IMG/VR virus record: IMGVR_UViG_3300045988_042144
Span: 1 to 43,890 of that record
Length of the DNA: 43,890 bases
Reading direction: 5' to 3' (one strand)
Source: a virus
Every line of letters begins with the position of its first letter. Positions within the stretch are counted from its first letter, which is position 1. Both the position numbers and the translations under genes were made by a program. Shown one piece after another: positions 2,013-26,166 of the stretch. The notes under the pieces were generated by a model, which saw nothing but the letters and a program-made list of their open reading frames with translations, searched no databases and was not told the origin of the DNA.

Positions 2013-2072
2013 GGTGGTTGCTATTTGATGGCTCGGGATTTTTTCTTTTCCTCTCTCCCTTACCTTGATTAC

Positions 2073-2101: not shown

Positions 2102-2147
2102 CACCTTTTTGAAAAAAAGTGGTGAGATTTTCATTTTTTTTTTTGGC

Positions 2148-4183: not shown

Positions 4184-6295
4184 ATGGCAAGACGCAGACA
4201 GGAGGCAGGGCAGCAGGGGCTGCCGATGGAGGAGCAGCAGATCGGAGGCGTTCCGCAGCTCGGCGCGGGGCAGCAGGTTGTGCCGCCTACGCCGGAAGAA
4301 GGTATTGCGATGCTGCAGAGCGACCCGACGATGACGGCGGGCATGGCAGCCGCAGCGCCGATCGCCGCCGAAGGCGCTGCAGGTGCTGGCGTAGACCTGC
4401 CCGGTGCGGCGGCGGAGGCAGCTGCATTGGCGCAGCCGGGGCCGATTGGCCGAGAAGAGATCGCGGAGGCCATGGCCACGCTGCGCAAATACAAGGAGGG
4501 CAAGGTCGCGCTCGAGCAGCGAATTGTCGAAAACGAGGACTGGTGGAAGCTCCAGCACTGGCGGCAGATCAAGCGCGGCGCGAAGAACCCCGGAGACCCG
4601 GAGCCCGCGTCCGGCTGGCTGTTTAATTGCATTGCTAACAAGCACGCAGATGCGATGGACAACTACCCGGAGCCCAACGTGCTGCCGAGAGAGCGTGACG
4701 ACGAGGCCGATGCCAAGCTCCTCTCCAGCATCCTGCCTGTGGTGCTGGAGCAGAACGATTATGAGCAGGCCTACAGCGATATGTGGTGGTATAAGCTCAA
4801 GGCGGGCACGGGCGTGATGGGCATCTTTTGGGACGCGCGCAAGGAGAATGGTCTGGGGGACGTGGACATTCGTCCGCTCGATCTGCTCAACCTGTTCTGG
4901 CAGCCGGGGATCACCGACATACAAAAGAGCCGCAACCTCTTTCACGTGGAGCTGATCGACCGGGACGTGCTGCTGCAGCAGTACCCCGGCCTCAAGGACC
5001 CGAGCACCTACGCATCGCTGGACGTGGCCAAGTACGTCTACGACGACAACATCGATACCACGGACAAGTGCATCGTGGTGGACTGGTACTACAAACTTCA
5101 AGGCGAGGACGGGCGCACGGTGCTGCACTACTGCAAGTTTACCGGCGAGACGGTGCTGTATGCTTCGCAAAACGATCCCGTGTACGCCGCCAAGGGCTAC
5201 TACGACCACGGCAAGTACCCGGTGGTGTTCGACACGCTCTTCCCCGAGGAGGGCACACCCGCGGGATTTGGCTACATCGACGTGTGCAAGGACGCGCAGA
5301 TCTACATCGACAAGCTGGATCAGGTCATTCTCAAGCACGCGGTGATGGGTAGCAGGCCGAGGTTCTTTGTCAAGGGAGACGGCAACATCAACGAGGCGGA
5401 ATACGCCGACTGGACAAAGGACTTTGTCCATTATTCCGGCAACGGCGATCCCAACGAGTCCATTATGCCCGTTGAGATTCCCAACCTTTCGGAGGCGTAC
5501 CTCAACGTACGTTCCCTTAAGATCGACGAGCTTAAGGAGACGAGCGGCAACCGCGACTTTTCTCAAGGCGGCACGTCCTCCGGCGTGACGGCGGCTTCCG
5601 CCATCGCCGCGCTGCAGGAGGCGGGCAGCAAGCTCTCCCGCGACATGATCAAGTCCGCCTACCGTTCGCATGCGGCGGTGTGCTACATGGTCATCGACCT
5701 GATGCGGCAGTTTTACACCGAGAGCAGGTATTTTCGCATCGTCGGTGAGCGCGGCCAGATGGAGTTTGTGCAGTTCACCGGGCGGCAGATCGCCGAGAAA
5801 CCCTTGGGGCCGGAGTACGGACTCAACGAGGGCTTCCGCGTGCCGATCTTCGACATCAAGGTCACGGCGCAAAAATCCTCGCCGTACTCAACCGTCGTCG
5901 AAAACGAGCGCGCCAAGGAGCTGTACGGCATGGGCTTCTTCCGCCCCGACCTCGCAGATCAGGCGCTGGCGGCGTTGGACATGATGACGTTTCAGGGTAA
6001 GGAAAAGGTGCGCGAGACGATTGCCAACAACGGCACGATGTACCAGCAGCTGCAGATGATGCAGCAGCAGATGGCGCAGATGGCCGCGATCATCGACGCG
6101 CAGAATGGTACGACAATCACGGACAACATGCTGGCCTCGTGGGGTCAGGGCGGAGGCGAATCCGCGCAGGGCAATGCGGACCGCGACGGCAAGGAGACCA
6201 CGTCGGACGCATACGGCAACGCGACCAAGGAGGACACGACGAGCTTGGCAGGTAAGGCTAGGACGCGGGCGGCCTCGGCGGCATCGCCCGCGTGA
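4184..6295 (+). CDS. Portal protein (703 aa, podovirus P22-like size)
   Basis: Position after terL; large size; Gln/Met-rich helical C-terminal tail; GGAGGGA RBS. Confidence 0.7.
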   Translation: MARRRQEAGQQGLPMEEQQIGGVPQLGAGQQVVPPTPEEGIAMLQSDPTMTAGMAAAAPIAAEGAAGAGVDLPGAAAEAAALAQPGPIGREEIAEAMATLRKYKEGKVALEQRIVENEDWWKLQHWRQIKRGAKNPGDPEPASGWLFNCIANKHADAMDNYPEPNVLPRERDDEADAKLLSSILPVVLEQNDYEQAYSDMWWYKLKAGTGVMGIFWDARKENGLGDVDIRPLDLLNLFWQPGITDIQKSRNLFHVELIDRDVLLQQYPGLKDPSTYASLDVAKYVYDDNIDTTDKCIVVDWYYKLQGEDGRTVLHYCKFTGETVLYASQNDPVYAAKGYYDHGKYPVVFDTLFPEEGTPAGFGYIDVCKDAQIYIDKLDQVILKHAVMGSRPRFFVKGDGNINEAEYADWTKDFVHYSGNGDPNESIMPVEIPNLSEAYLNVRSLKIDELKETSGNRDFSQGGTSSGVTAASAIAALQEAGSKLSRDMIKSAYRSHAAVCYMVIDLMRQFYTESRYFRIVGERGQMEFVQFTGRQIAEKPLGPEYGLNEGFRVPIFDIKVTAQKSSPYSTVVENERAKELYGMGFFRPDLADQALAALDMMTFQGKEKVRETIANNGTMYQQLQMMQQQMAQMAAIIDAQNGTTITDNMLASWGQGGGESAQGNADRDGKETTSDAYGNATKEDTTSLAGKARTRAASAASPA

Positions 6296-6309
6296 AGGAG
6301 GGACGGCAC

Positions 6310-6660
6310 ATGATTAAGGCGTTGATTGCACGGGATGCTGGATGCTCCCGTTACACGGTAGACATCGAGGGGCATGCGGAATTTGCCGAAGAGGGCAAGG
6401 ACATCGTCTGCGCGGGAGTCTCTGCGCTGGCGATGGCGGCGGTCAAGACGCTGTCCACGCTGGAGGAGGCGGGGATGTGCAGGGTGACGGCGTGCGATAT
6501 GCCCCAGCCCGGCTCCCTCCATCTGGAGACGGAGGTCGACGAGGGCGCGCAGAAGGTCAGCATCATGACGGTGATCTCGATGCTGGCGCATGGGCTGGAG
6601 GGGATTGCGCAGCAGTACCCCGACAACATCCAGCTGGCCATCGATGCCCCGCAGGAGTGA
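6310..6660 (+). CDS. prp: Prp-like cysteine protease (ribosomal L27 / capsid-processing protease family)
   Basis: GHAEFAEEGKDIVCAGVSA matches the Prp His/Cys dyad region (S. aureus Prp ...GHADHGEYGHDIVCAGASA); about 117 aa; AAGGAGGG RBS. Confidence 0.75.
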   Translation: MIKALIARDAGCSRYTVDIEGHAEFAEEGKDIVCAGVSALAMAAVKTLSTLEEAGMCRVTACDMPQPGSLHLETEVDEGAQKVSIMTVISMLAHGLEGIAQQYPDNIQLAIDAPQE

Positions 6661-6826: not shown

Positions 6827-7777
6827 ATGATGCACGAGATTTTCGGTCTGCAGTTCTTCGCCGGTGGCGGCGGCGGTGGTGGTGCCGGAGGCGGCGCGGG
6901 CGGCGGTGCAGCCGGTGGTGCGGGAGCGGGAGCCCCTGCGGCAGAGGGCACGGCGGCAGCGGAATCGCTGGAAAATGTGCAGTACGGCAAACAGCCGGAG
7001 CAGGCACAGAGCGACCCCATTCGCCCTGAAAAGGCGGCAGAACCCCCGGACCGAAAGAAAGCGTTTGAGGCGCTGATTAAGGGCGAGTACAAGGATGAAT
7101 TTGCCGAACGTACGCAGCAGATCATCAACGACCGCTTTAAGCAGACCAAGACGCTGGAGACGCGGATGCAGCAGCTCGATCCCGTCCTGCAGATGCTGGC
7201 CGACAAGTACGGCGTGGACGATCCCTCTGACGTGGAGGCGATCTCCAAGGCGATTCAGGACGACGACAGCTACTACGAAGATGAGGCCGATGAGAAAGGT
7301 CTGTCCGTGGCACAGCTCAAGGAGTTCAAGCGCATGGAGCGGGAGAACGCCGAGTTTAAGCGCATGGCGGAGGAGCACGACCGCCAACAGCACGCGGACA
7401 TGATCTACCAGCAGTGGATCGACCAGTCCGAGCAGGTCAAGCAGATCTACGGAGACTTCGACCTCCGCGAGGAGATCGGCAACCCGGAGACCGGCGAGCG
7501 CTTTATGGGGCTGCTTCGTAACGGCATCGATGTCAAGACCGCCTATGAGGTGCTCCACAAGGACGACATCATCGGCGGCGCGATGCAGTACGCGGTGCAG
7601 CGGACCGAAAAGCGCGTGGCCGACACCATCCGCGCTCGCGGCATGAGGCCGCAGGAGAATGGCGCAGGCGGCAACGCCACGGCCATGATCCACAAATCTG
7701 ACGTTAATTCGCTGACCAAGCGCGACCGCGACGAGATCGCCCGGCGCGTAAGACGGGGAGAGAGAATCACGTTCTGA
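6827..7777 (+). CDS. Scaffolding protein with N-terminal Prp-type cleavage motif (MMHEIFGLQFFA|GGGG), a poly-Gly/Ala linker and an acidic coiled-coil body
   Basis: Position between portal/prp and capsid; composition; LQFFA motif identical to the L27 cleavage site. Confidence 0.7.
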   Translation: MMHEIFGLQFFAGGGGGGGAGGGAGGGAAGGAGAGAPAAEGTAAAESLENVQYGKQPEQAQSDPIRPEKAAEPPDRKKAFEALIKGEYKDEFAERTQQIINDRFKQTKTLETRMQQLDPVLQMLADKYGVDDPSDVEAISKAIQDDDSYYEDEADEKGLSVAQLKEFKRMERENAEFKRMAEEHDRQQHADMIYQQWIDQSEQVKQIYGDFDLREEIGNPETGERFMGLLRNGIDVKTAYEVLHKDDIIGGAMQYAVQRTEKRVADTIRARGMRPQENGAGGNATAMIHKSDVNSLTKRDRDEIARRVRRGERITF

Positions 7778-7800: not shown

Positions 7801-8796
7801 ATGGAGCTTATCAAGCTGATGACCCTGCAGTTCTTCGCGACTCAGACCACCCTGTTGGACGATCTGAGTCCCGAAATGAAAACCTACTATGAGAAGCGGC
7901 TGATCGACTATGCCGAGCCTGCTCTCGTCCACGACCAGTTTGCGGACAAGTACCCGATCCCCGCTCACGGCGGTAAGACCATTGAGTTCCGCAAATATTC
8001 GCCCCTTGCCAAGGCGCTGACTCCGCTGACCGAAGGCGTGACCCCCAACGGCAACAAGCTGGAAGTCACCGCGATCACCGCGACCGTGGCGCAGTACGGC
8101 GACTACATCGAGATTTCCGATGTGCTCGATCTGACCGCCATCGACCCCAACATGGAGCAGGCGACCAAGCTGCTGGGCGGTCAGGCCGGACGCACGCTGG
8201 ACACCATCACCCGCGAGGTGATCACCGCAGGCACCAACGTCATGTACGCGCCCAAGGCGGACGGCACTCCCGTCACCAGCCGCGCTACTGTGGCTGCGGA
8301 CTGCCTGCTGACCGTGGATACCATCTTTGTGGCCGTGGCGCGGCTGAAGGAAATGAACACCATGCCCATTGACGACTCCTTTGTCGCCATCGTGCATCCC
8401 AACGTGGCTGCCGACCTGATGCGCTCCGAGGCGTGGCAGGGCATCCACAAGTACATGGATGCGACTGCCATCTACAACGGTGAAATCGGCAAGATCGGCA
8501 ACGTGCGCTTTGTCGAGTCCACCGAGGCCAAGTGCTACGGCAAAGTCGGCGCGTCGAATGCGTCCGTCTACGCCACCATGATCATCGGTGCGAACGCCTA
8601 TGCGACCACCGACGTGACCGGCGGCGGCCTGCAGCACATCGTCAAGCAGATGGGTTCTGCCGGTACTGCCGACCCCCTGAACCAGCGCGCGACCACCGGC
8701 TGGAAGGCGATCAAGACGGCGGAGCGTCTGGTCGAGGAGTACATGATCCGCATCGAGCACTCCTCCAAGACCGGTCCCTCCAACCTTGCGAACTAA
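7801..8796 (+). CDS. Major capsid protein (HK97-fold type) with N-terminal Prp-type cleavage motif (MELIKLMTLQFFA|TQTT)
   Basis: 331 aa, position after scaffold, strong RBS, typical capsid-protein composition; strong terminator about 270 nt downstream. Confidence 0.8.
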   Translation: MELIKLMTLQFFATQTTLLDDLSPEMKTYYEKRLIDYAEPALVHDQFADKYPIPAHGGKTIEFRKYSPLAKALTPLTEGVTPNGNKLEVTAITATVAQYGDYIEISDVLDLTAIDPNMEQATKLLGGQAGRTLDTITREVITAGTNVMYAPKADGTPVTSRATVAADCLLTVDTIFVAVARLKEMNTMPIDDSFVAIVHPNVAADLMRSEAWQGIHKYMDATAIYNGEIGKIGNVRFVESTEAKCYGKVGASNASVYATMIIGANAYATTDVTGGGLQHIVKQMGSAGTADPLNQRATTGWKAIKTAERLVEEYMIRIEHSSKTGPSNLAN

Positions 8797-11715: not shown

Positions 11716-12957
11716 ATGGCAACCTACTCGACGATCAAGAAAGGGAGCAAGGGCGACAGCGTAAGACAGCTGCAGGAGCTGCTGAACGCCAACGGTTACA
11801 ACCTTGCCTCCGACGGCATCTACGGCTCCAAGACCGCTGCGGCGGTCAAGGACTACCAGTCCCGCAACGGCCTGTCTGTGGACGGCATCACGGGCAATAA
11901 GACGTGGTCGTCCCTGTACGGCGGCGGGAACACGGGCGAGGGCATGGACAGCGGCTTGGGTGGGAGCGTCAGCATGAGCGGCGGCTTCAGCGGCGTTTCC
12001 TCCGCGACCTCCGGCAAGCTGGCGCAGTACGAGGAGGGGCGGCCTGAGTGGGCTCCCTCGAAGGATATGCTCGATCTCAAGGACAAGCTCGACAAGATGG
12101 AGTCCAGCAAGCCGGGTGCGTACCAGAGCAAGTATCAAGCGCAGATCGACGGTCTGCTGGACAAGATTCTCAACCGGGACAAGTTCAGCTACAACTTCAA
12201 CGCCGATCCGCTTTACCAGCAGTACAAGGACCGCTACACCCAGCAGGGCAAGATGGCGATGCAGGACACCATGGCACAGGCGGCGGCGCTCTCCGGCGGC
12301 TACGGCAACTCCTACGCGCAGACGGTCGGCCAGCAGGCCTATCAGGGCTATCTGCAGGGACTGAACGACGTGATCCCGGAGCTGCGCAATCAGGCATATG
12401 AGATGTATCAGGACGAGGGCAACAACATGAAGAGCAACCTGAACATCCTGCAGGGGCTGGAGGACACCGAGTACGGCAAGTACCGTGACACCGTCAACGA
12501 CTATTGGACGGAGCTGAACTACTTCTACAACAAGTTCGGCGACCAGCGGAACTTCGACTTCAACAAGTATTCCAGCGACCTCTCTGCGTGGCAGGCCGAC
12601 CGCGCGTACTGGTATCAGAAATACTACGACGAGCAGCAGCAGGCGAACTGGGCAGCGGAATACAATCTTGCTGCGGCAAAAGTGTCTGGCAGCAGTGGCG
12701 GGAAAACAACCGGAAGAGGCAGAGGACCTGACAGCAAACCCGAGCCTACAGTGAAAAAAACGTATAACAACCAGTCTACGACCGCGCAGGGCAAACTGCT
12801 CAACATTTACGTTCCCGGTTACGGCAATATGTCTGCGAAAAAATTTGAATCTGCAAATGCGGCGGGTCAGATCGCCTACGGCAAAAACCAGTACGGGCAG
12901 ACGATCTATGTCAAGAAGGGCTATAAAGATACTGCCAAATCGACGAAAAAGAAGTAG
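11716..12957 (+). CDS. Virion-associated protein with an N-terminal peptidoglycan-binding domain (PG_binding_1-like) and a Gln/Tyr/Gly-rich body
   Basis: SKGDSVRQLQELLNANGYNLASDGIYGSKTAAAVKDYQSRNGLSVDGITG matches the PG-binding consensus; RBS GGAGGAAC. Confidence 0.65.
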   Translation: MATYSTIKKGSKGDSVRQLQELLNANGYNLASDGIYGSKTAAAVKDYQSRNGLSVDGITGNKTWSSLYGGGNTGEGMDSGLGGSVSMSGGFSGVSSATSGKLAQYEEGRPEWAPSKDMLDLKDKLDKMESSKPGAYQSKYQAQIDGLLDKILNRDKFSYNFNADPLYQQYKDRYTQQGKMAMQDTMAQAAALSGGYGNSYAQTVGQQAYQGYLQGLNDVIPELRNQAYEMYQDEGNNMKSNLNILQGLEDTEYGKYRDTVNDYWTELNYFYNKFGDQRNFDFNKYSSDLSAWQADRAYWYQKYYDEQQQANWAAEYNLAAAKVSGSSGGKTTGRGRGPDSKPEPTVKKTYNNQSTTAQGKLLNIYVPGYGNMSAKKFESANAAGQIAYGKNQYGQTIYVKKGYKDTAKSTKKK

Positions 12958-12966
12958 GAGGTTCGC

Positions 12967-15900
12967 ATGGCCAAGGACAAAAAGAAACGGTCTGCCAATT
13001 ACATCGGTGCTGCGGATGAGCTAGTAAGAAAGGCCAAGGCTGATCCGGAAGGCACCGCCGCCTCTGTATCGGAGTGGGAATCCTCTCAGCGGGAACAAGC
13101 AATTCAGGATCGTGCCGCCCGCGAAATTGCTGCGAAGAATCTTCGCAGCTATATTCAGAGGCATCCCAGCTTTTCCAGAAGCCAAAAGGACGCGACTGCC
13201 GCGGTTATACTCAGAGAAACGACGGATATCAATGCCGCTCGCAGGCGTGAGAATATCGGCAAGGCTCAGCGCGAAATCCAAAGTCAGAACGAGTTGACCT
13301 CGAATCCATACGCGCAGGCAATGCGTAAAACTATGCTCAACCAAGAACGTGCAAGGCTGGACAGTCTGCCGGGGTTTTCTGTGTCTGAATTGGATGCGCT
13401 TGATGACGATGAGCGTAACCGTCGTATAACAGATTGGGCAAAAAGATCGGCTGCGGTGGATCGTGGCCTGGAAAAAACCAATCAGAGCATTGACGCTTAT
13501 AATGCTGCGATGGCTCGTCAGCGCAACGACACTGAACAGGAAGAGCTGAACAAGTATATCAACAATCCCACCGCGATGGTGGCGCGCATGACCATGCTCA
13601 ATCAGGAGCGCGCGAGGCTGGACAGCCTGCCGAGCATGACTCTTGATGAGGCCATGGACTATGGTGCGCGGTCGGCTGCGGTTGATCAAGGGCTGCGCCA
13701 GACAGAGCGGAACCTCTCTGCCTATGACAAGGCAATGGAGCGGTTGAAATTGCAGCGGTATGGCGATACGGTGCGTGAAAATGCGGATTTCACAGAGTAT
13801 TCCAGAAAAGGCGCGTCTGCCGAAAACCCGGATAACCAGTGGCAAGCAGTTTGGACGGGGAACAGAGTAAAGAACCCTGTCACTTATGCCAGAGCCCAAG
13901 CCGAAAAGCCGAAGAATGCTTTTGCACGATTCATGGACAATGCGTTCAATTACGGGCAAAGCGACAGTCCGGGCGATATACAGCGCCTTGCATCCTACAT
14001 GACGAGGGATGAGGTAAACGTATACAATTACCTCTGGGCAAAGGATCAGGAAAACGGCACCAGCGACGCATCCAAGTATTTTACGGATTTGACCAAGACA
14101 CTGTTCGAAAGACAATCCGAAGGATATGTCGAAGGCGCGCAAAAATGGTCTACCGAAAGCGCAGGGAATTCCGCGCTTGCCAGCGGAACGACCGTGCTCC
14201 GCTCCCCCGCGAATGGCGTGGCATATCTGGATGCCCTTGCTACCAAAGCGCAGGGGAAAAGAATCGACCCAAGCAGCGCCACGCAAGTGCAGGCTCGTGT
14301 CAACATCGGCGTTCGAGGTGCAGTGGCGAATGAAATTTCCGACACTGTTTCCAGTGGTACGGGTTCACAGTTTCTTGGGGACGCAACGAGCTTTTTGTAC
14401 CAGACCGGCCTCTCTATAGCGGACTCGGCGCTCAACACGGCCATAACTGGAGGAAACGCGCTTGCATCTTCTGCCCTCATGGGCGGAACTGCTGCCACCA
14501 GCGCGATGCAGGAAGCGTTGGATGGCGGCGCATCTGATACGCAGGCGCTCGCAGTTGGCGGGTTGGCAGGATTCTTCGAGGCGTTCTTCGAGCGGTTCTC
14601 GATTGAGAACTTTTTGAAAATGTCCAGCCCTGCGGCAAAGGGTTCTGCGATTATGAACCTCCTGCGGCAGATGGGCATTGAAGCGTCCGAGGAACTCGGA
14701 ACGGAAGTTGCCGATATAGTATCCGAGTATCTGGTGATGCGTGACATTTCCCAGTACAAGGATGCTACTCCGGGCGAGATCGCGCAGCAAATTGCACTGG
14801 CTGCACTTGGCGGAGCCTTGTCTGGCGGCGTGATGGGCGGAACCGGTCTGCTCGTTAACAATATCCAGTCGAATCAGATCGGTAAAGCTGCATCTCGTGT
14901 CGGCGTGAGCGACAGTGTGATTCTGGACGCGCTGAATTCGAACGATCCCAGCGCACGCGCCTTGGCACAGCAAATGCTCGACGGGGAAGCAAAGACGAAC
15001 TCTCAGAATGTTGGCAAACTGTACGCCAGCCTTGCCGAGAACGGCGAATACAGCAACTACGACACCGAGGCGATCCTGCGTGCCGCTGCCGAGGAGGCCG
15101 CAGCCGAAAAGCAGCAGAAGAAGAACAGCAAAACTGCCCAGCGGCAGACTGCCTCCCAGAACGCCCAGAATGCCCCTGAGAGCGTTTCCGCGCAGGAGCA
15201 GACCAATCGCACCAACACGGAAGAAAATGCCCAGCAGACCCGCAAGCAGCCCCGCGTGGACTATGCCACGAACGTGGTGGACAACGAAGAGACTGACATT
15301 ACGGGCATCCACTCCGTCGAGGACGGCACGGTGTATGTGCAGGCGGGAGATAACGTTGTCGCGCTGAACGACGTGGAGTTTGCCAACGCGGACATCGGCG
15401 AGTTGTATGAGCGCGCCGGGAAATATGGAACGGAGGCGGCGCAGCGTTTTGTGAAGGCGTATGACGGCGGCTCTGTGGAGCAGTATGCCAAGGGCTTTGA
15501 CGCGATGTACCGAGCCGCCAGAGACGGTGTTGCCTACGACACGGCGCTGCAGCAGAGTCTCTATGTGGAGAACTACTTAAGCGAGGATCAGCGGATGCAG
15601 GCGTATGCCGCCGGGCAGAGCACCTCTTCGCAGACCCAGACGCAGGTTGCAACCAATCAGGAACAGGTTGCAACTGAGCAGCAAGTTGAAAAACCCCAGA
15701 ACACTGAGGTTTCTGCCGCTGTGCAGACCGAAACAAAGGCGGCGCAGCAAGTTAAAAAGGCAGCCAAGCCCGGCCTGACGCGCAGCTATGCGCGCGCGGA
15801 GCTGACGAGCGAGCAGCGCAGCGCCATCAAGAAGAATCGCGGCCAGCTTCAGGTGGTGGACACGCTGGCCAAGAAGTACGGGCGCGAGGTCGTGCTGGTC

Positions 15901-18900
15901 GGCAGCCTGCAGGGCATGGAGATCAACGGTCAGACGGTCGAGCAGAGCGCCAACGGCGTGTTCGATCCTTCCAGCGGACGTATCTATATCGCAGCGGATG
16001 CGCAGGACGGCGCGTTTGCCTACGTCGCCATGCATGAGCTGGCGCACAGCGTCCGCGCCGCAAGCGAGAGCGATTACAACGCCCTTCAGACCACGGTGTT
16101 CGACGCGCTGACCAAGAACGGGCAGAATGTGGACGATCTGGTCAAATACCAGATGGACACGTTCGGCTACTCCGAAGACGTGGCGCGAGAGGAAGTCGTG
16201 GCTAACTCTGCCGCGACGGTGCTGACGGACGAGGAGTTCGTGCGCAATCTGTACAACAACGAGCACAGCCTGTTTGAGCAGATTCGCAAGTTCTTCAATG
16301 AACTGGCGGAGACCTTCAAACAGCTCACCCAGAGCGCGAGCTGGAGTCAGGACGCTGCGCTCACGCCGGAGAACGTGCGCGCCATCGCAGAGGTGTTCGA
16401 CCGGGTGGCGGCGGATACGGCATACGCAGAACGGGAAAATGCTGTGAATTCTCCCCAAAATAAGTTCAATTTTGTGGATTATTCCGAGCGAGAAAAACTT
16501 GGTTGGGAGGGAAGCAAAAGCATTGTTCTTTACGAGAATGATGCACAACTTGATAGGTTCGTGCAGACTGCCATTGAAGACAAATCAATTCATAAGAAAT
16601 TGTATTTTGGCAAAATCCCGTCAGAATTGAGCACTGAAGTGTTCGAAAAAACAGGAGTTAATGTTGATGGGTACAATTTTACGCTAAGAGCGGATGAGAT
16701 CAGAAAGATACTAAAAGACCATGGACAAAGGGCAAAGGAGGCTAACAGAGGGCAACAACCAATTACGCAGAAGGACTTCGCACGAATCCCAACGGTTGTT
16801 TTGAATCCGGATAATATAAAACTTTCTGATAAGCTCTTTGAGGGGAAACCTGTAATCCTTTTTGAAAAAGAAATAAATGGGAGAAAGACGGTAGTAGCCT
16901 ATGTAACAAAAAAACACATGGATTTGACTGTGCAAACCATGTATTTTGGTAAAGAAAAAGGGAGCAGACCCACTACGCCGAGTGATGCTTCAAGCATCGT
17001 CTTGCAAACGTCCGAAACGCTTAGTGGTAATGCTCCCATTACAACGGTAGCAGAAGCATCTGACGTTGTCAAGGGGGCGGTAGAAGATATCTCTGCCAAA
17101 ACCACAGACAATAATTCTGACAGCGGCATCAAGCTCTCCGTCAAGGACGTGGAGCCTGCCGACGCGAAGAAGCTGCAGCGGGAGAACGACAAGCTCAAGA
17201 GCGCGCTGGAGAACGCGCGCGCACAGCTGCGGCTGACGGATGGGATGCAGGTGGACGAGAAGGCGGTCACTAAGCTGGCGCGCGGCATCGTCACGGATTA
17301 CAGCAGCAAGGCCGACGTGACCAAGCTCTCAAGCGACCTGTACCAGCTCTTCAACTACGCCTCTCACAGCCCGGACACCGATGCAGCGTTTTCCGAACTG
17401 AACGACATCGGCATCGGTTTGGCACGACAGGTGATCGAGCAGTCGCAGCAGGTGGACACCTCTGTATCGGAGCAGTTCTCCGATCTCAAGGACTACCTGA
17501 AGAGCACGCCCATCCGGCTGACGGACGCGCAGAAGGAGCAGATCGCGGCCTCTTACGGCAGCTTGGCCAACTTCCGCAAGGAATATCGCGGCACGATCAA
17601 GATTTCAAACGACGGCGTTGCGTTGGACACGGTGATCGGCGAAATGGCAGAGTCCTATCCGTTTCTGTACGACGGCATTCAGGGCGGCGACCTCATCGAG
17701 ACGCTGACCAACGCAGCCGACGTGACTAAGCCGCAGATCGTCAATCCGTACTACATGGATATGGACGGCGCGGCGGCTGACCTGTGGCTGGAAATCCAGC
17801 AACGGTATACGGACACGCCCATGGTGCAGACCTATGCCGACAAGCAGAAGGCCAAGCTGGTCGAGCTGAAACAGCAGCAGAAGCAGCAGATCAAAGACCT
17901 GCGCCAGCAGGCAAAGGATGAAATGGACGTTGCGCTGCAAATCGCCAAGGAACGCGCCCAGCGGCAGCAGGACGCTGCTGTGCGCGGAGAGCGCCAGAAG
18001 CAGCAGGTCAAGACCGAAAAGCTCAAGGCAAAGAACCAGCAGCTCAGAACGGACATTGAGAACGAGCGCATTGCGAACGCTATCAACCGTGCGCTGGCAT
18101 CCAAGCGGTATGCTGCACTCAAGGAGCAACGCACCGCGGATCTCAAAACCCAGCGAGAGACCATCAAAACGCGGGAAAGAGTCGGCAGGTACAAAGACCG
18201 CATCAAGGCGGCGGCAATGACGCTGTCGGCATGGAACACGTCCCCCAGCGACAAGCGGTTTGTGCCGGAGGGGCTGCGCAGGGCGGTATCCGACTTTGTC
18301 AGCGCCATCGACATGGGCTTTAAGGAGGGCAGCAAGGTCTCCGAAAACTGGAAAGCGCGGATGCGGCAGATGCAGATCGCCGTGGAGAACGCGCAGAGGA
18401 GTTCGCCCGACGTGGGCATGGCGACGTGGGATCAGGAAACCGTGGACAACCTCGCCTCGCTGACCGCGCTGATCGAGGGCAACGACAACATCAAGAGCCT
18501 CCGCGACCTGAGTGAGCCACAGCTCAAGGCGCTGGCGGACGTGCTCAACGGCATCAAGCACGAGGTCATCAACGCCAACAAGATGTTTGTCAACGGCAGG
18601 CGCGAAAGCCTTTCCAAGGCGGCGGACAGCGAGATTGAGCGGATGGGCTCCCGGAAGACCGGCAAGGTCCGCAAGCAGCTCCAGAAGATCATGGACAGCA
18701 AGCTCATGCTGGGCAACACCAAGCCTATCTTCCTGATGGACAGCCTCGGCGGCGAGTACGAGCGGATCGGCAGAGACCTTTTCAACGGTCGTACCGAGGC
18801 GGCGTTCATTCTGCGGGATTCCAAGGACTTTCACTCCGGCCTGAAAAAGCGCTACCACGTCGACAAGTGGCTGGATCAGAAGGGCGATGTGCTGACGCTG

Positions 18901-21900
18901 AACACGGAGTTCGGCGACACGATCCGGTTGTCCAGAGGGCAGGCGCTCGACGTATACGAAATGTACCAGCGCGAACAGCAGGACACGCACACGCGGCATC
19001 TTGCCGACGGCGGCATCGTGTTTAAGACCGACGCGGACGGAAAGCGCGTGGACGATACCACCGCGCATCCGATCTCCGACGCGGACATCCAGAAGATCAC
19101 GAGCTGGCTGACGGACGAGCAGATCGCCTATGCGGACGCTCTGGTGCGGTACATGAGCACCACGCTGGCGGAGGCGGGCAACAAGACCTCGCTGACGCTC
19201 TCCGGCTACAAAAAGTACACCGGGCAGCACTATGTACCGTTCAACTCTGCGAGCGATTACATCGCCCACGGAGCCGGTCAGGCGGACGGCCAGCAGACCC
19301 CGCGCCTGAAGAACTGGGGACACGGCAAGAGCATCAACGCCTTTGCCAACAACCCCGTGGTGGTGGAGAGCATCGACCAGATATTCGGCAACCACGCCGA
19401 AGAGATGGCCAAGTATGCGGGGCTGGCGATCCCGCAGGACAACATGATCCGCTACCTCAATTACAAGCAGCCCAACGAGCAGGGCAAGCGGCAGATGTCG
19501 ATGAAGTCCGCGCTGCGCGCCGCATACGGAGATAACGTGGTGCGGTACATCGACCGCTTCAACGCAGATGTCGGCGGGAAGATCACGGCGGACGTGCGCG
19601 ATCAGGAGATGGGACCGATGCTCTCCAGATTCAAGAAGGGCGCAGTGCTTGCATCCATGTCCGTTGTGGTGCAGCAGCCCACCGCATACTTCCGCGCATT
19701 CTCCTTGATGAATCCCAAATACATGAGGCTCGGCTGGACGGGCGCGTATCAGGAGGCGCAGCAGTACGCTGGCACGGCGATCATCAAGGACATCGGTGGC
19801 TTTGATATGCAGACCAGCAGGGGCGCTGCGGACTGGATACTCGACAAAAAGCCGACCAACCCGATCGGATGGACGGATAAGGTGTTTGGGACGCTGCCGG
19901 AAAAGGCGGATGCGGTCACTTGGGGTGCGCTGTGGAACTCGGTCAAGGCTGAGATTCACGGTGAGACAGGGCTTGCCATGAACAGCGAGGCGCTGCTGAA
20001 GGCGGCGGGCAAGCGCTTTGACGAGGTGATCGACTTTACGCAGGTGTACGACTCGACGTTCTCCCGCTCGGACTGGATGCGCAGCAAGAGCAAGTTCGGC
20101 AGCATGGTCACCTCCTTCATGGCGGAGCCCACGACCAGCATGAATGTGTTCATGTACTCCCTGCTGCACATTAAGGACAAGAACTACTCCGGCAAGGTAC
20201 ACTTCATCCCCGCCACGCTGGCACTGGCGGCGACCACGATCATCAACGCGGCGGTCAAAGCGGTCGTCTACGCCGCACGCGACGATGACGATTACGAGAC
20301 CTTCTGGGAAAAGTATCTGGCGCAGCTCAAGAGCGCGCTGTTCGGCGACAAGATCGAAGGGCTGCCTGACTGGCTGGGAACGCCTCTGGGCTTTGTGGCC
20401 GGAAGCGACTTCTCCGTGTTTACCCAGATTCCGCTCGTATCCGATGTCATGGAGCTTGCACAGGGCTACGACGTAACCCGCACGGACATGAACGTGGTGG
20501 GCGATGTGGTCGACGCGGCGCTCGGCCTGTTCAACGAGAAGAAGACGGTCTACACAAAGGTCAAGAACCTGATCGGCGCGGTGGGCAACCTGACCGGGCT
20601 GCCGGTCAAGAACCTCTGGCGTGACGTGGAATCGGTCGTCCGTCTCTTCGGCGTGGAGATTCCCGCCGCGACCGGCGGCACGGCGGACGGCTATGCGAAG
20701 CTCTACGAGACCATCGCGTCTGGCGATGACAAACGCGCCGAGAAGCTGCGCGACACCCTCGAAGGAAAGGGCAAGAGCAGCAAGGACATCGACACGGGCG
20801 TGGCCAAGTCGCTGATGGAAAACGACGAGCGCATCCGGCAGGCCTACGAGATGAAGGCCGAGGGCGACATCGCCGGGCTGGAAGAGCTGCGCGCGGAACT
20901 GGCGGAGACCTACGGCGAGGAAGTCGTGGACAAGGCGATCAAGCTCTACGAAAACAGCCTCAACTCCGAACTCAAAAAGAAAGCCGAGGCGCTGCTGGAA
21001 AGCGAATCCCGCATTGCAGAGCTTTACGATTACAGCGAAAAGGGCGAGACACCCAACACCGCAAAGGAGGAAGCGCTGCGGGAGCAGTTGGAGAAGCAAT
21101 ACGGCAAAGAACTTGTCGAGAAGGCACTGTCCGTCTATTCGGAACAGTTTGACGAGCTGGATTCCGCCCTCTACACGGCGGACGACATGGAGATGGTCGG
21201 CACACTGGCCTTTGAGAGCGGAAAGACCGCAGACCTCAAGACTGTCGTGGCGGAGATGGAGAAGGACAGCAAGGCCAACGACCCGAAGAAATCCGTACTG
21301 GACAAGGCCGTAACCGCCTTCAAACCCTTGTACACGGAAGCACTTGACAAGGGCTATGCGCAGAAGGCGGCGCGGATCAAGAAGGTGCTGCTGGATGTCT
21401 ACGGCAGCTACGGCATGACGGAGGAGAAGATCGACAAGTGGCTGCCGGGAGAGAAGGCGGCTGCCCTCTATGAAGCGGTGGACGCGGGAGCCTCCGTGCA
21501 GAGCCTCAACAAGCTCATCAAGGACGCGAAAGCCGCCGGGCAGAAGGACTCCAACATCATCAACAGGATCAGCAGCACCTACAAGGAAAAGATGCTGGAG
21601 GCGTGGCAGAAGGGCGACACGAGAACCTACAACCAGATTGCCTCGCTGCTGAAGAACCTGAACCTCTACGACAGCAAGGGCAAGCTCTACTACACCGACG
21701 AGCGCTTCAAGGACTGGCAGATGGCGGAGAAATACGACGATCTGCCGGAGGCGGTCAGAGCCGGAGATGCCGGTGCGGTCAAACAGTACGTTGCCAACCT
21801 GAAAAAGGACGGCTATTCGGATGGCCAGATCACGCAGCGCGTCAGCACCAACGTGCATGACGAACTGGTGGAGGCGTACCTCAAGGGCGACATGAGCACC

Positions 21901-22017
21901 TACAACAAGCTCAAAGCCATGCTGCAGTCGCTCGACCTGCACGACAAGAGGGGCAATCAGTATTACCCGGACAGCAAGATCGCAAAGTGGATCAAGGACG
22001 CGCAGGAGAAAAAGTGA
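12967..22017 (+). CDS. Giant 3016-aa virion/ejection (internal core or polyvalent-type) protein candidate with an HExxH metallopeptidase-like motif, an AT-rich inserted domain and internal repeats
   Basis: Single uninterrupted ORF with GGAGG RBS; sits between virion accessory genes and tail fibres; HELAH at aa 1023-1027 (nt about 16033-16047); long coiled-coil stretches. Confidence 0.75.
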   Translation: MAKDKKKRSANYIGAADELVRKAKADPEGTAASVSEWESSQREQAIQDRAAREIAAKNLRSYIQRHPSFSRSQKDATAAVILRETTDINAARRRENIGKAQREIQSQNELTSNPYAQAMRKTMLNQERARLDSLPGFSVSELDALDDDERNRRITDWAKRSAAVDRGLEKTNQSIDAYNAAMARQRNDTEQEELNKYINNPTAMVARMTMLNQERARLDSLPSMTLDEAMDYGARSAAVDQGLRQTERNLSAYDKAMERLKLQRYGDTVRENADFTEYSRKGASAENPDNQWQAVWTGNRVKNPVTYARAQAEKPKNAFARFMDNAFNYGQSDSPGDIQRLASYMTRDEVNVYNYLWAKDQENGTSDASKYFTDLTKTLFERQSEGYVEGAQKWSTESAGNSALASGTTVLRSPANGVAYLDALATKAQGKRIDPSSATQVQARVNIGVRGAVANEISDTVSSGTGSQFLGDATSFLYQTGLSIADSALNTAITGGNALASSALMGGTAATSAMQEALDGGASDTQALAVGGLAGFFEAFFERFSIENFLKMSSPAAKGSAIMNLLRQMGIEASEELGTEVADIVSEYLVMRDISQYKDATPGEIAQQIALAALGGALSGGVMGGTGLLVNNIQSNQIGKAASRVGVSDSVILDALNSNDPSARALAQQMLDGEAKTNSQNVGKLYASLAENGEYSNYDTEAILRAAAEEAAAEKQQKKNSKTAQRQTASQNAQNAPESVSAQEQTNRTNTEENAQQTRKQPRVDYATNVVDNEETDITGIHSVEDGTVYVQAGDNVVALNDVEFANADIGELYERAGKYGTEAAQRFVKAYDGGSVEQYAKGFDAMYRAARDGVAYDTALQQSLYVENYLSEDQRMQAYAAGQSTSSQTQTQVATNQEQVATEQQVEKPQNTEVSAAVQTETKAAQQVKKAAKPGLTRSYARAELTSEQRSAIKKNRGQLQVVDTLAKKYGREVVLVGSLQGMEINGQTVEQSANGVFDPSSGRIYIAADAQDGAFAYVAMHELAHSVRAASESDYNALQTTVFDALTKNGQNVDDLVKYQMDTFGYSEDVAREEVVANSAATVLTDEEFVRNLYNNEHSLFEQIRKFFNELAETFKQLTQSASWSQDAALTPENVRAIAEVFDRVAADTAYAERENAVNSPQNKFNFVDYSEREKLGWEGSKSIVLYENDAQLDRFVQTAIEDKSIHKKLYFGKIPSELSTEVFEKTGVNVDGYNFTLRADEIRKILKDHGQRAKEANRGQQPITQKDFARIPTVVLNPDNIKLSDKLFEGKPVILFEKEINGRKTVVAYVTKKHMDLTVQTMYFGKEKGSRPTTPSDASSIVLQTSETLSGNAPITTVAEASDVVKGAVEDISAKTTDNNSDSGIKLSVKDVEPADAKKLQRENDKLKSALENARAQLRLTDGMQVDEKAVTKLARGIVTDYSSKADVTKLSSDLYQLFNYASHSPDTDAAFSELNDIGIGLARQVIEQSQQVDTSVSEQFSDLKDYLKSTPIRLTDAQKEQIAASYGSLANFRKEYRGTIKISNDGVALDTVIGEMAESYPFLYDGIQGGDLIETLTNAADVTKPQIVNPYYMDMDGAAADLWLEIQQRYTDTPMVQTYADKQKAKLVELKQQQKQQIKDLRQQAKDEMDVALQIAKERAQRQQDAAVRGERQKQQVKTEKLKAKNQQLRTDIENERIANAINRALASKRYAALKEQRTADLKTQRETIKTRERVGRYKDRIKAAAMTLSAWNTSPSDKRFVPEGLRRAVSDFVSAIDMGFKEGSKVSENWKARMRQMQIAVENAQRSSPDVGMATWDQETVDNLASLTALIEGNDNIKSLRDLSEPQLKALADVLNGIKHEVINANKMFVNGRRESLSKAADSEIERMGSRKTGKVRKQLQKIMDSKLMLGNTKPIFLMDSLGGEYERIGRDLFNGRTEAAFILRDSKDFHSGLKKRYHVDKWLDQKGDVLTLNTEFGDTIRLSRGQALDVYEMYQREQQDTHTRHLADGGIVFKTDADGKRVDDTTAHPISDADIQKITSWLTDEQIAYADALVRYMSTTLAEAGNKTSLTLSGYKKYTGQHYVPFNSASDYIAHGAGQADGQQTPRLKNWGHGKSINAFANNPVVVESIDQIFGNHAEEMAKYAGLAIPQDNMIRYLNYKQPNEQGKRQMSMKSALRAAYGDNVVRYIDRFNADVGGKITADVRDQEMGPMLSRFKKGAVLASMSVVVQQPTAYFRAFSLMNPKYMRLGWTGAYQEAQQYAGTAIIKDIGGFDMQTSRGAADWILDKKPTNPIGWTDKVFGTLPEKADAVTWGALWNSVKAEIHGETGLAMNSEALLKAAGKRFDEVIDFTQVYDSTFSRSDWMRSKSKFGSMVTSFMAEPTTSMNVFMYSLLHIKDKNYSGKVHFIPATLALAATTIINAAVKAVVYAARDDDDYETFWEKYLAQLKSALFGDKIEGLPDWLGTPLGFVAGSDFSVFTQIPLVSDVMELAQGYDVTRTDMNVVGDVVDAALGLFNEKKTVYTKVKNLIGAVGNLTGLPVKNLWRDVESVVRLFGVEIPAATGGTADGYAKLYETIASGDDKRAEKLRDTLEGKGKSSKDIDTGVAKSLMENDERIRQAYEMKAEGDIAGLEELRAELAETYGEEVVDKAIKLYENSLNSELKKKAEALLESESRIAELYDYSEKGETPNTAKEEALREQLEKQYGKELVEKALSVYSEQFDELDSALYTADDMEMVGTLAFESGKTADLKTVVAEMEKDSKANDPKKSVLDKAVTAFKPLYTEALDKGYAQKAARIKKVLLDVYGSYGMTEEKIDKWLPGEKAAALYEAVDAGASVQSLNKLIKDAKAAGQKDSNIINRISSTYKEKMLEAWQKGDTRTYNQIASLLKNLNLYDSKGKLYYTDERFKDWQMAEKYDDLPEAVRAGDAGAVKQYVANLKKDGYSDGQITQRVSTNVHDELVEAYLKGDMSTYNKLKAMLQSLDLHDKRGNQYYPDSKIAKWIKDAQEKK

Positions 22018-22023
22018 AACAGG

Positions 22024-22050
22024 GAAGTGCCTCTTCGGAGGCACTTTTCG
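22024..22050 (+). terminator. Rho-independent terminator after the giant gene
   Basis: AAGTGCCTC-TTCG-GAGGCACTT hairpin followed by TTTCG. Confidence 0.6.
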
Positions 22051-23628: not shown

Positions 23629-25416
23629 ATGAAGACAATCCAGTTCAACGGGCGCAAGCCTATCCCAACCACCATCACGGTGGGCATGGAGAGCGACCAC
23701 AACGCGGAGACTGTGCGCTTTGCCGTAACCGAAACGCCGGAGAGCTACTGCCTGCTGTACATCACGGCGGGCAACTATAGCGACGTGGTGCAGCTCAACA
23801 ACGGCCTGTGGCAGCCGACGCGCACCCAGACCCAGCGCCCCGCGCGCTATCAGGGCTACATCGAGCGCCGCGTGGGGAACGACGTGGTGTGGCACAGCGA
23901 GCCGTTTTTTGTGATCGTGGATGTGCTCCCGGCGGCGAAGAAGAAACTGGAGAAGGCCTATCCCACGCTGCTGGATCAGGTGGCGGCGGAGGCGCAGCAG
24001 GTGCAGCAGAACACAGACGAGGTCATCCGCAAGGCGCAGACGGTCGCTGATTTTCAGAAGGCGACCGGGAACGTCACGGTGGATGTGACGCAGGTGGCAA
24101 GCGACGTGCCCGCATCCGGCGGCGCGACCATCGACACGGAAGGCATTGCGTTTACCTTTGACATCCCCAAGGGAGAGAAGGGCGACAAGGGCAGTCAGGG
24201 CGACAAGGGCGACACGGGCGCTCCGGGGCGCGGCCTGACGATCCTCGATTATTACGCCACGGAGGCAGCGCTGCGCGTGGCGGTGACGAATCCCGCACCG
24301 GGGGATGCATACGGCGTTGGCGTGGCAGCGCCTTATGAGATTTACGTCTGGAGCCCGTCCTTGGGATGGGTGAACAACGGCGCGCTCCAAGGCCAGAAGG
24401 GCGACAAAGGCGACAAAGGCGATCCCGGCCCCAAGGGGGACAAGGGCGCGGACGGTGCGAAGGGCGCGGACGGCGCACCGGGGCCAAAGGGCGAGACCGG
24501 GGCGCAGGGGCCGCAGGGCGCTGTGGGGCCGAACGCGGTCAGCACCTCCACAAGCACGGACATCACCGGGCTGCTCAAGGGCGCTGGCGGGAAGGTGGCC
24601 AAGGCGGTTGCCGGTACGGACTACGCTGCGGCATCCCATACGCATAAAACCAGCGACGTGGAAGGGTTGGATGAGATTTTGAGCAAGCCGGGATTGAACG
24701 CAATATTCATCGACCTGTCTGACGCAAACGCTACGGCGGAAGATATCGCGGAGGGCAAGATCGCCTACGTTGCGGATGCGCAGCGTATTGTCGGCACGGC
24801 AATCGCAGGGGGACTTGATCCCAACAACAAGCCGAGGATCACCTACACTGGTCAATGGAGCGGATGGTACATAGAATTTTATGGAGGCACGCCCTATTGG
24901 GAGGCTGTCTTCTATACTTCCGGCGCGCTTCAAAGCGCTGATAATTACAATGCTGATTTCTGGGGCATCGGCGGCGGTCCGTTCGATTATTCGGGTGTCA
25001 TGAACGGCGGATCGACAAATAAACTGTTGAATTTTGCGCTTTCGGCTACGCAATACGCGGTCACTGTTGGCGCGGGGGCGACGAAGAACACGCGCGGAAG
25101 CGGCGGTGACACCACGGTTGCAAGGGTGGGGGGATCAAGCAGTGCGGCGGCGATTTTTACGGCCAAGGGCGGCATCATGAATCAGTCGGGCACGGGCGAC
25201 AGATACCGATTTGGCGATCCTGATAAGGAAAATGAAGCGGGCGCAGATGGTACGTCCAACGGCTATGCGCACGGTACGGGCGGCTGGCTGCACTGGCGAT
25301 GCGGGGTTGACAACGGCGACGGCGAAGGCTACGGGGCTGGGGGCGACTACGGCGGCTATGGCAACGCGCTGGTGAACGCGCATCCCGGCGCTCTGGTCAT
25401 CCGCATCGCAGTATAG
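23629..25416 (+). CDS. Tail fibre protein 2: collagen-like repeats, SHTH-type fibre motif (AASHTHKTSDVEGLDEIL), C-terminal Gly-rich putative receptor-binding domain
   Basis: G-X-Y tracts at two sites; shared LDYYATEAALRVAVTNPAPGDAYGVG module; C-terminus ends ...GALVIRIAV. Confidence 0.75.
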   Translation: MKTIQFNGRKPIPTTITVGMESDHNAETVRFAVTETPESYCLLYITAGNYSDVVQLNNGLWQPTRTQTQRPARYQGYIERRVGNDVVWHSEPFFVIVDVLPAAKKKLEKAYPTLLDQVAAEAQQVQQNTDEVIRKAQTVADFQKATGNVTVDVTQVASDVPASGGATIDTEGIAFTFDIPKGEKGDKGSQGDKGDTGAPGRGLTILDYYATEAALRVAVTNPAPGDAYGVGVAAPYEIYVWSPSLGWVNNGALQGQKGDKGDKGDPGPKGDKGADGAKGADGAPGPKGETGAQGPQGAVGPNAVSTSTSTDITGLLKGAGGKVAKAVAGTDYAAASHTHKTSDVEGLDEILSKPGLNAIFIDLSDANATAEDIAEGKIAYVADAQRIVGTAIAGGLDPNNKPRITYTGQWSGWYIEFYGGTPYWEAVFYTSGALQSADNYNADFWGIGGGPFDYSGVMNGGSTNKLLNFALSATQYAVTVGAGATKNTRGSGGDTTVARVGGSSSAAAIFTAKGGIMNQSGTGDRYRFGDPDKENEAGADGTSNGYAHGTGGWLHWRCGVDNGDGEGYGAGGDYGGYGNALVNAHPGALVIRIAV

Positions 25417-25425
25417 GAGGAACAG

Positions 25426-26166
25426 ATGATTATCAAAAACGGAAGAGTGGGCGGTATACCTAGCGCCAGCCGCAATCCCTTCCTGAACGGAGAAATCACG
25501 TTTGACGGACCGTGGCAGGTCGGCTGGGAGATTTACGACGGCAAACTCTATGCCGAAGCGGTAATTGTCAAGTCTGGCACACTGACCGTGCAGAAGCAGT
25601 ATATCTGCGACCTGTGGATGATAGGCGGCGGTGGTGGATCTGCGACAATGACCAGCAGCTACAATCATCGCGCGGGTGGCGGGAGTGGCTTTACAGAGAT
25701 GGCAATCGGGAAGATTCTCGGCATTGCGCTGCACCCTGTGACAATCGGCGCGGGCGGAACGAATAACGATCACTACAGAGAGACGAGCTACAATACAGAT
25801 GTCGTGGGCACTAAGGGCGGATCAACCTCGTTTCTTGGCGTATCCGCCAATGGAGGGAACAACGGCACAGTACGCTGTAAAAAAGGAGAGACATCACCGT
25901 ATGACTGGACGCCGGGCACGGGAGGGAGCAACGGAGGGACGTCATACGGGGAAAACTTGTCAACAATGCCCTCTCGGCAGGCTCCCGGCGAGAACGGAAC
26001 ACCGGGCGCGGGGAAAATCATGTCCCGGTTTTGGGATGCGACGAAGAACACGGATTACGGGCGTGCGAATGGCACGGCGGCGCAGGGCGCGGGCTGGGGA
26101 TTGAGCGGCGCGGGCTACGGCGCAGGCGGCACATCCGGCGCGCTGGTTATCCGAATTGCAATATAG
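25426..26166 (+). CDS. Stand-alone paralogue of the Gly-rich C-terminal domain of fibre protein 2 (alternative distal fibre or receptor-binding domain candidate)
   Basis: Protein aligns by eye with the last ~240 aa of 23629..25416 (W..GW.I...G..Y.EAV......L......D.W.IGGG ... GALVIRIAI); GGAGGAAC RBS. Confidence 0.65.
   Translation: MIIKNGRVGGIPSASRNPFLNGEITFDGPWQVGWEIYDGKLYAEAVIVKSGTLTVQKQYICDLWMIGGGGGSATMTSSYNHRAGGGSGFTEMAIGKILGIALHPVTIGAGGTNNDHYRETSYNTDVVGTKGGSTSFLGVSANGGNNGTVRCKKGETSPYDWTPGTGGSNGGTSYGENLSTMPSRQAPGENGTPGAGKIMSRFWDATKNTDYGRANGTAAQGAGWGLSGAGYGAGGTSGALVIRIAI

Follow-up and report, generated by a model that had tools for sequence, protein, structure and literature searches.

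Polyvalent proteins, as described by Iyer, Burroughs, Anand, de Souza & Aravind (2017, J Bacteriol 199:e00245-17), are giant multi-domain phage proteins encoded among portal-terminase and other virion genes. They are organized around a zincin metallopeptidase (MPTase) hub, carry effectors such as the PBECR domains, and are mosaic from one orthologue to the next. Their predicted path is packaging, injection and proteolytic release. Here we analyse a window of 43,890 nucleotides (nt), positions 1 to 43,890 of the IMG/VR virus record IMGVR_UViG_3300045988_042144, in which one giant open reading frame (ORF) at 12967..22017 on the plus strand runs from ATG to TGA and encodes 3016 amino acids (aa; 333.7 kDa, isoelectric point 5.4, no cysteine). 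Judged from its sequence, the giant protein belongs to this class: it is a multi-domain giant with signature domains in a virion-gene context, and it joins a zincin-like domain, a PBECR3 domain and at least four further conserved segments in one 3016-aa polypeptide. It differs from the proteins they described in two ways. Most of it is a conserved scaffold, including an N-terminal hydrophobic region and a 700-aa core, that matches no LPD or other model in Pfam, and its variation is centred on one sharply bounded slot rather than on domain shuffling along the protein.

Several other systems invite comparison. The protein gp47 of the Stx phage phi24B (vb_24B_48, 2807-2811 aa) has LPD and MuF-C domains; proteomics finds it in abundance in virions, and it has been proposed as an ejection protein (bioRxiv 10.64898/2026.04.10.717836). 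It too is a polyvalent giant from a temperate podovirus, and its zincin motif has similar local surroundings, but its host is Gram-negative and its gene lies at the end of the late region, whereas the gene here lies between the head genes and the fibres. Prophages phi1 and phi4 of Clostridium clostridioforme LM41 have an 8-kb ORF that takes ~20% of the genome and shows similarity to LPD3, and podovirus-like particles, attributed mainly to phi1, dominate the LM41 supernatant by transmission electron microscopy (PMC11318856). The likeness is by description only, and consists of a gut Clostridia host, a temperate genome of ~41 kb, a predicted podovirus morphology and one ORF of ~20%; unlike the gene studied here, the LM41 ORF is placed by its authors at the 3' end of the prophage (PMC11318856). 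P1 DarB and the N4 virion RNA polymerase (vRNAP) are enzymes of very large size that travel in the capsid and enter the cell along with the DNA (PMC5512222). One member of the family described below has a DarB-like module of SNF2 and Eco57I type, but the giant protein itself contains neither a methylase, a helicase nor a polymerase domain, and it resembles neither enzyme in sequence or fold. The MuF polymorphic toxins, of the SPP1 gp7 type, share an exchangeable effector with this system, and close relatives of the giant protein have MuF_C (of the PBECR clade) in the same slot. The giant protein, in contrast, lacks the MuF N-domain (it has no Phage_Mu_F match), its effector is internal rather than C-terminal, and no immunity gene is adjacent. 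The class itself, similar giant ORFs in prophages of gut Clostridia and an analogous protein in virions are already known. What goes beyond the literature we found is the size of a family built on an unrecognised 700-aa core, the single bounded slot whose contents are swapped, a recurring junction motif and the depletion of cysteine.

Comparison with relatives shows a fixed scaffold (hydrophobic N-region, zincin-like domain, long helices, all-alpha core) and one exchangeable slot. Identity to close relatives is 94-100% per 50-residue window and falls abruptly to ~20% between aa ~1150 and ~1385. At the DNA level we compared four loci that are 94-97% identical over ~27-29 kb (window ~2960-32000). 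All four share a left breakpoint at nt 16421, and the right breakpoint falls between 17047 and 17135; these delimit a swappable effector cassette at 16422..17134 (+), aa ~1153-1390. Such breakpoints show, as a matter of sequence comparison, that the slot is exchanged by recombination in otherwise near-identical phages. The only other segment replaced outside the giant gene in these loci is the second tail-fibre gene. The pattern of replacement in the slot is an arms-race signature that parallels the receptor-binding fibre. The fibre hot-spot itself lies at 24644-26133, where the C-terminal part of fibre gene 2 and the following gene are exchanged in relatives.

Sixty-eight relatives have both flanks of the cassette, and their cassettes fall into ten clusters, at least eight of them within the close clade. 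The types are the PBECR3 found here, a second divergent PBECR3, MuF_C (the commonest, with 20 proteins), LPD3 with PBECR5, an unannotated domain with PBECR5, LPD3 alone, and two long modules of 635 aa (the P0018 group) and 818 aa (P0052) that have no Pfam match. The two long modules share motifs, some of them containing cysteine (..DF..VC.K..., ..C..C.V.S. and ..G..DEHI....IPYH.SG..), and may be a new effector domain. The cassette in this phage is recognised by its PBECR3 domain (PF18812), a phage Barnase-EndoU-ColicinE5/D-RelE-like predicted RNase, at aa 1217-1331 (16615..16959, +). The match has E=2.8e-18 and 66.3 bits against a Pfam cut-off of 30, and it covers positions 3-111 of the 115 in the profile, with H1252 and T1324 kept. 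Among cultured phages the only partial sequence match is to PBECR3 alone, in the 'minor head protein and DNA pilot' of Rhodobacter phage RC1 and Rhodovulum phage RS1.

Just before the slot lies a zincin-like metallopeptidase at aa ~936-1120 (15772..16326, +), recognised from an invariant motif, a structural model and sub-threshold profile matches. The residues H1023-E1024-L-A-H1027 and E1076, the Glu expected as third ligand, do not vary among the 25 relatives aligned, some of which are only ~15-20% identical. We modelled aa 790-2580 of the giant protein with AlphaFold2, and in this region three strands precede the HExxH helix, which another helix follows, at a predicted local distance difference test (pLDDT) score of 65-80. 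The best Foldseek matches of the zincin model are anthrax lethal factor (E=0.036) and IrrE (E=0.24), neither of which is significant. Iyer et al. report lethal factor as a relative of the polyvalent-protein MPTases (PMC5512222).

These two domains bear on what the initial annotation had proposed from the letters of the sequence. It had noted at least one enzymatic motif, and there are two such elements, HELAH at aa 1023-1027 and the Pfam PBECR3 domain. Its suggestion of a polyvalent type is borne out by PBECR3, by the invariant zincin motif, by the swappable cassette and by the domains of the relatives, which include MuF_C, PBECR5, LPD3, ART-PolyVal, SNF2/Eco57I and LPD-type modules. The idea that several effector domains are combined was overstated: there is one recognisable effector and one peptidase, and the other ~2,500 residues are conserved scaffold. 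The long coiled-coil regions it described are borne out in part, by very long single helices in the AlphaFold2 models.

A single ORF of 9 kb that takes about 20% of its phage had also been noted, together with the possibility that it is split in the real genome. The ORF takes up 20.7% of a genome of 43,788 bp. An identical direct repeat of 102 nt stands at window positions 1-102 and 43789-43890, and we therefore take the assembly to be closed and circular and the genome to be complete. Homologues of 2,900-3,500 aa run uninterrupted on dozens of ~44-kb contigs, each independently assembled, and in all the frame is unbroken in more than 100 independent assemblies. The conserved parts towards either end of the gene have a ratio of nonsynonymous to synonymous polymorphism (pN/pS) of 0.11-0.19 when three relatives are compared. 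The gene is therefore real, neither a chance ORF nor an assembly artefact, and the split-ORF objection fails.

None of the 3016 residues of the giant protein is a cysteine; in 19 other proteins of the phage the share is 0.92% (P~7e-13). Its relatives show the depletion family-wide. Such a composition fits a protein that would pass unfolded through a narrow channel and come to lie outside the cytoplasm. Two other proteins of this phage, the peptidoglycan (PG)-binding neighbour (11716-12957) and the scaffold-like protein (6827-7777), are likewise free of cysteine.

The part of the scaffold that defines the family is an all-alpha core at aa 1850-2550 (18514..20616, +), modelled mostly at pLDDT 75-94. 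It lies within a match to PHROG 22978 (E=2.4e-237) in which aa 1370-2565 align with profile positions 2029-3156 of 3513; this PHROG has no annotated function. Invariant residues of the core include H2011, G2071-N2072, Y2089, P2091, Q2237, K2274, D2315, T2358-Q-V-x-D2362 and E2387, and an RDDD motif follows a hydrophobic helix at aa 2416-2434. The core has no relative in the PDB by profile search or by fold comparison, the whole giant protein has no PDB match by sequence, and no NCBIfam model matches it. An exhaustive HMMER search with aa 1850-2570 found 3,579 clusters (at 50% identity) at E<=1e-3 and 2,641 at E<=1e-30. Nearly all of the proteins that bear the core are 2,300-4,900 aa long, with the core near the C-terminus. 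A Foldseek search of predicted viral structures with the core gave 84 matches at E<=1e-3, and the named ones are all pieces of giant proteins from uncultured phages, annotated as MuF-C, nuclease, PolyVal ADP-ribosyltransferase (ART), LPD-containing, type I restriction enzyme or N-acetyltransferase.

Core relatives were found in metagenome-assembled genomes of Acutalibacteraceae, Oscillospiraceae, Ruminococcaceae, Lachnospiraceae, Roseburia and other gut Clostridia by searching with a short core alignment; a scan of genome contigs with the single protein had given no match. Megablast and tblastn against 50,697 phage records returned no relative among cultured phages; apart from the PBECR3-only match, the matches there are unannotated fragments from human faeces. 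Three individual observations belong here. P0106 (L086 575-14005), a protein of 4476 aa, combines SNF2/ResIII helicase domains with an Eco57I-type methylase domain, all preceding the shared core, an architecture like that of DarB. The prophage of a distant relative (L087 26178-28259) has separate ART-PolyVal ORFs, one of 612 aa and one truncated, past the lysis genes, so polyvalent-type modules exist outside the giant gene too. The cultured Tenacibaculum phage Gundel_1 has a 'structural protein' whose C-terminal piece (BFVD A0A8E5E9U1_2) is a weak fold match to the core (E=6e-10, TM 0.23); at the level of predicted models this is a possible connection between the core and a virion protein from a phage in culture. 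A literature search on this Gundel_1 protein gave nothing useful, and a paper on the Paenibacillus podovirus API480 contains nothing of relevance.

The position of the gene also bears on its role. The genes run in the order large terminase (TerL), P22-like portal, Prp, scaffold, major capsid protein (MCP), three proteins of 123, 572 and 149 aa, PG-binding protein, giant protein, BppU_N/collagen fibres and lysis genes. The phage has both small and large terminase genes, and its capsid protein is of HK97 type. Two BppU_N/collagen-type fibre genes lie 3' of the giant gene, the first of them, a 500-aa tail fibre, starting 100 nt downstream, and the lysis genes follow. The other side of the genome has a tyrosine integrase, RecE/RecT and a replication initiator, and the phage is temperate. 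No major tail (tube) protein, sheath, terminator, chaperone pair with frameshift, Dit/Tal or separate tape measure is present in this genome or in the relatives examined. A relative only ~25% identical repeats the order from head to giant gene (TerL, P22-like portal, Prp, scaffold, MCP, PG-binding protein, giant), and its genes of tail type number just three, for proteins of 123 and 591 aa and for one leucine-rich-repeat fibre. This gene content, without tube, sheath or chaperones, argues for a short-tailed, podovirus-like phage, and the placement of the ORF among the virion genes of such a phage, which the initial annotation had asserted, holds. The gene directly upstream, at 11716..12957 (+), encodes a cysteine-free protein of 413 aa with an N-terminal PG_binding_1 domain, identified by domain match. 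In the one distant relative examined (P0111, ~25% identity) a PG_binding_1 gene likewise immediately precedes the giant gene.

The boundaries between modules bear short conserved linkers (..SVAEASDVVK..) and a motif with the pattern [RK][YFL]S.[RK], seen in relatives such as P0006, P0015, P0070 and P0078. Here the motif is IKLSVKD at aa 1389-1395 (17131..17151, +), on the boundary between effector and scaffold. It often reads ..NPDIRYS.R.. and is still present in relatives that are only ~25% identical. The motif is 2.1-fold above shuffles in an independent set of 135 representatives, with a peak 400-500 residues before the core. We regard this junction as a candidate processing site or module joint. 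A literature search on the 'DIRYS' motif found nothing relevant.

We believe the probable explanation for these data is that the giant protein is a polyvalent protein that is packaged, ejected with the DNA and cut by its own zincin domain to release an effector. The 334-kDa polypeptide would be made late, alongside the head and tail proteins, and a few copies would be packed in the capsid of what we take to be a temperate, short-tailed phage infecting gut Clostridia. At infection it would be expelled via the portal and tail, ahead of the DNA or with it. The scaffold and the upstream PG-binding protein would serve first in incorporation into the head and then in crossing, or inserting into, the Gram-positive envelope. 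Cleavage by the zincin domain, perhaps at the [RK][YFL]S.[RK] junctions, would then free the effector inside the newly infected cell. There the PBECR3 effector would cleave an RNA belonging to the host or to one of its defence systems. We infer delivery into the cell from the position of the gene in a virion module without a tube, the pairing with a PG-binding protein, the depletion of cysteine, the arms-race pattern of the slot and the precedents given above. An ejection role is plausible by analogy with those precedents.

Not everything we found favours this explanation, and the points that weigh against it are as follows. The case for packaging of the giant protein is made from gene position, cysteine depletion and analogy (phi24B gp47, P1 DarB, N4 vRNAP). 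Scans with Pfam and NCBIfam found no MuF, portal-binding or other known head-targeting domain in the giant protein. There is no sequence or fold likeness to the T7 internal core proteins (gp14-16), the P22 ejection proteins (gp7, gp20 and gp16) or N4 gp51, gp52 and vRNAP (for fold, in aa 790-2580), and an hhalign comparison of the family profile with phi24B gp47 matches the HExxH segment only, at a probability of 3%. The Pfam matches of the zincin region are below threshold (DUF6782 at 22.6 bits against a cut-off of 27, Peptidase_M78 at 14.7 bits against 22). In PBECR3, K1247 stands in place of the first His of the H....HG motif found in four other members of the family, and the AlphaFold2 model of the domain (a helix and four strands) is of low confidence, with pLDDT 45-69; RNase activity of this copy is uncertain for these two reasons. 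The junction motif is degenerate, and the strict pattern is at the boundary in only 51 of the 135 proteins.

The strongest rival to packaging and release of an effector is a difference of emphasis. It holds that the protein serves mainly in structure or ejection and is essential for that: as an internal core or pilot protein it would form a conduit for DNA through the thick Gram-positive wall and membrane, and the enzymatic cassette would be a dispensable passenger. It overlaps with the explanation we prefer and differs only in which function matters most. The scaffold speaks for it: ~2,500 of the 3,016 residues are conserved and under purifying selection, and the core family numbers at least 3,579 clusters, almost all of them giant proteins. 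So do the hydrophobic parts. A Gly/Ala/Ser-rich region with hydrophobic stretches (aa ~450-700; 14314..15066, +) is family-conserved, as is the hydrophobic helix of the core. Taken more widely, the Gly/Ala/Ser-rich segment extends over aa ~350-700, with hydrophobic peaks at aa 528-546 and 605-630 and the consensus ..YQTG.S..DS...MG..AA...GGALSGG.., and we consider it a candidate membrane-active or channel part. The PG-binding upstream neighbour, here and in the distant relative, fits a conduit as well, and the phi24B authors suggest a conduit role for gp47 (bioRxiv 10.64898/2026.04.10.717836). Against it, the protein has no fold likeness to any solved ejectosome component, and its hydrophobic stretches are few and short for a channel former of 3,000 aa. 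The passenger idea also has to face the fact that an effector-type module of some sort is in the slot of every relative inspected; the cassette is not simply lost. We think a chiefly structural role is possible but rather unlikely.

A second rival removes the protein from the virion. It could be a late cytoplasmic multi-enzyme protein, or a weapon like a polymorphic toxin that is freed at lysis against competitors, as has been proposed for MuF toxins. The polymorphism of the cassette does resemble that of polymorphic toxin loci, MuF_C and PBECR domains occur in toxin systems too (PMC5512222), and the argument for packaging of the giant protein is, as said, an indirect one. However, the protein has neither an N-terminal MuF domain nor a secretion signal, its variable module is internal and not C-terminal, and the next gene is not a small immunity-type gene but the tail fibre 100 nt downstream. 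The gene also stands within the virion module, and the cysteine depletion would be left unexplained. On this evidence we consider an unpackaged protein improbable.

The initial annotation had itself named a tail tape-measure protein as the alternative that would overturn an ejection role. Its great size, its largely helical make-up, its hydrophobic segments rich in Gly and Ala and the BppU_N baseplate-type protein that follows it are all features that a tape measure of a long-tailed phage might share. A tape measure specifies ~0.15 nm of tail per residue, and 3016 aa would imply a tail of ~450 nm. This genome and its relatives have no tail tube, sheath, terminator, chaperone pair or Dit/Tal. 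To our knowledge no tape measure has exchangeable RNase, ART or methylase-helicase modules. The particles ascribed to the LM41 prophages, to which this phage is likened by description only, are podovirus-like (PMC11318856). We reject a tape measure as very improbable on the gene content and the implied length of the tail. Least credible of all is a virion RNA polymerase of N4-like or crAss-like type. The size and position of the gene recall N4 vRNAP, and N4-type vRNAPs are also fused to zincin MPTases (PMC5512222). We reject this reading since there is no sequence or fold signal and the phage is temperate; it is effectively refuted for the modelled aa 790-2580, and aa 1-790 and 2580-3016 are repeat-rich or low-complexity.

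The remaining parts of the giant protein can be described briefly. The first 330 residues are charged and are mosaic or variable among close relatives, and they include an internal duplication at 13231..13743 (+), in which aa 89-184 resembles aa 179-259 (44-54% identical). A low-complexity linker rich in Gln, Glu and Ala occupies aa 700-790 and a small helical domain in the AlphaFold2 model aa 800-935. Beyond the cassette, aa 1400-1850 is helical in the models, with very long single helices, up to 69 residues, at aa ~1623-1668, 1690-1758 and 1850-1895; those of aa 1623-1758 (17833..18240, +) are rich in Lys, Gln, Glu and Arg. The C-terminal helical repeats at 20803..21990 (+), two copies in aa 2613-2729 and three copies of ~85 aa in aa 2766-3008, are common to close relatives only. 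Direct reading of the sequence finds a perfect Shine-Dalgarno AGGAGG at 12956..12961 (+), 5 nt before the ATG and overlapping the TAG stop of the upstream gene. It also finds a 9-bp GC-rich hairpin with a TTCG loop at 22025..22046 (+), 8 nt past the stop; this hairpin has a weak T tail and the terminator scan made no call there. Promoter and terminator predictions within the giant ORF are at chance level only.

Head maturation in this phage has its own interest. The P22-like portal gene (4184-6295) adjoins a gene for a Prp-type cysteine protease (6292..6660, +). The scaffold-like protein (6827-7777) begins with MMHEIFGLQFFAGGG (window 6827-6871) and the major capsid protein (7801-8796) with MELIKLMTLQFFATQ (window 7801-7842), and both have an LQFF|A motif. 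LQFF|A is the classical cleavage site of Prp, known from ribosomal protein L27 and from the capsid and scaffold of staphylococcal phage 80alpha. With the motif on both scaffold and capsid and the Prp gene just upstream, head maturation looks like that of 80alpha, here in a phage with a P22-like portal. We also considered whether Prp cuts the giant protein at sites of LQFF|A type and rejected the idea: there is no QFF or similar motif in it, and the [KR][LF]|S.K junction has a loose resemblance only. The 572-aa neighbour, which would be 597 aa if started at an upstream GTG (9464), has no relative in the PDB or among cultured phages.

Two repeats elsewhere in the window should be recorded. About 20 tandem copies of an 18-nt unit at 40177-40525, within an ORF at 40110-40814 (+, 234 aa), result in hexapeptide repeats. 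A direct repeat of 48 nt, 92% identical, stands at 1084-1131 and 1965-2012 (TGATTTT..CATTTTTTTGTCCTCCTTGA..TTGTTGGTGGTGTGTGT). Its reverse strand reads as a ribosome-binding-site-like AAGGAGGAC and then ATG, and the two copies may be duplicated start regions of two minus-strand genes.

A further and more speculative proposal concerns the scaffold itself. It may be an effector-delivery chassis of Gram-positive podoviruses, which would enter the capsid, thread through the tail, insert into the envelope and cleave itself at the 'DIRYS' junctions to release whatever effector is in the slot. We put this forward tentatively and think it rather unlikely. If true, these proteins would correspond to polymorphic toxin systems but be borne in the virion, and their anti-defence modules would plug in by recombination at fixed joints.

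The basic picture of Iyer et al. (2017) is unchanged by this work and is extended to a large uncharacterised family. The sharp joints of the cassette would permit swap experiments, and a core without a solved relative is a worthwhile structural target. If the giant protein is injected, each such abundant temperate phage of gut Clostridia brings one exchangeable weapon into the cell. At least eight different modules occupy the slot in phages whose DNA is ~95-97% identical, and two of these modules (635 and 818 aa) belong to no known family. The slot would then be a natural catalogue of early-acting activities against the host or its defences, and it would cover the Oscillospiraceae, Acutalibacteraceae, Ruminococcaceae and Lachnospiraceae, groups for which almost no phage biology is known.

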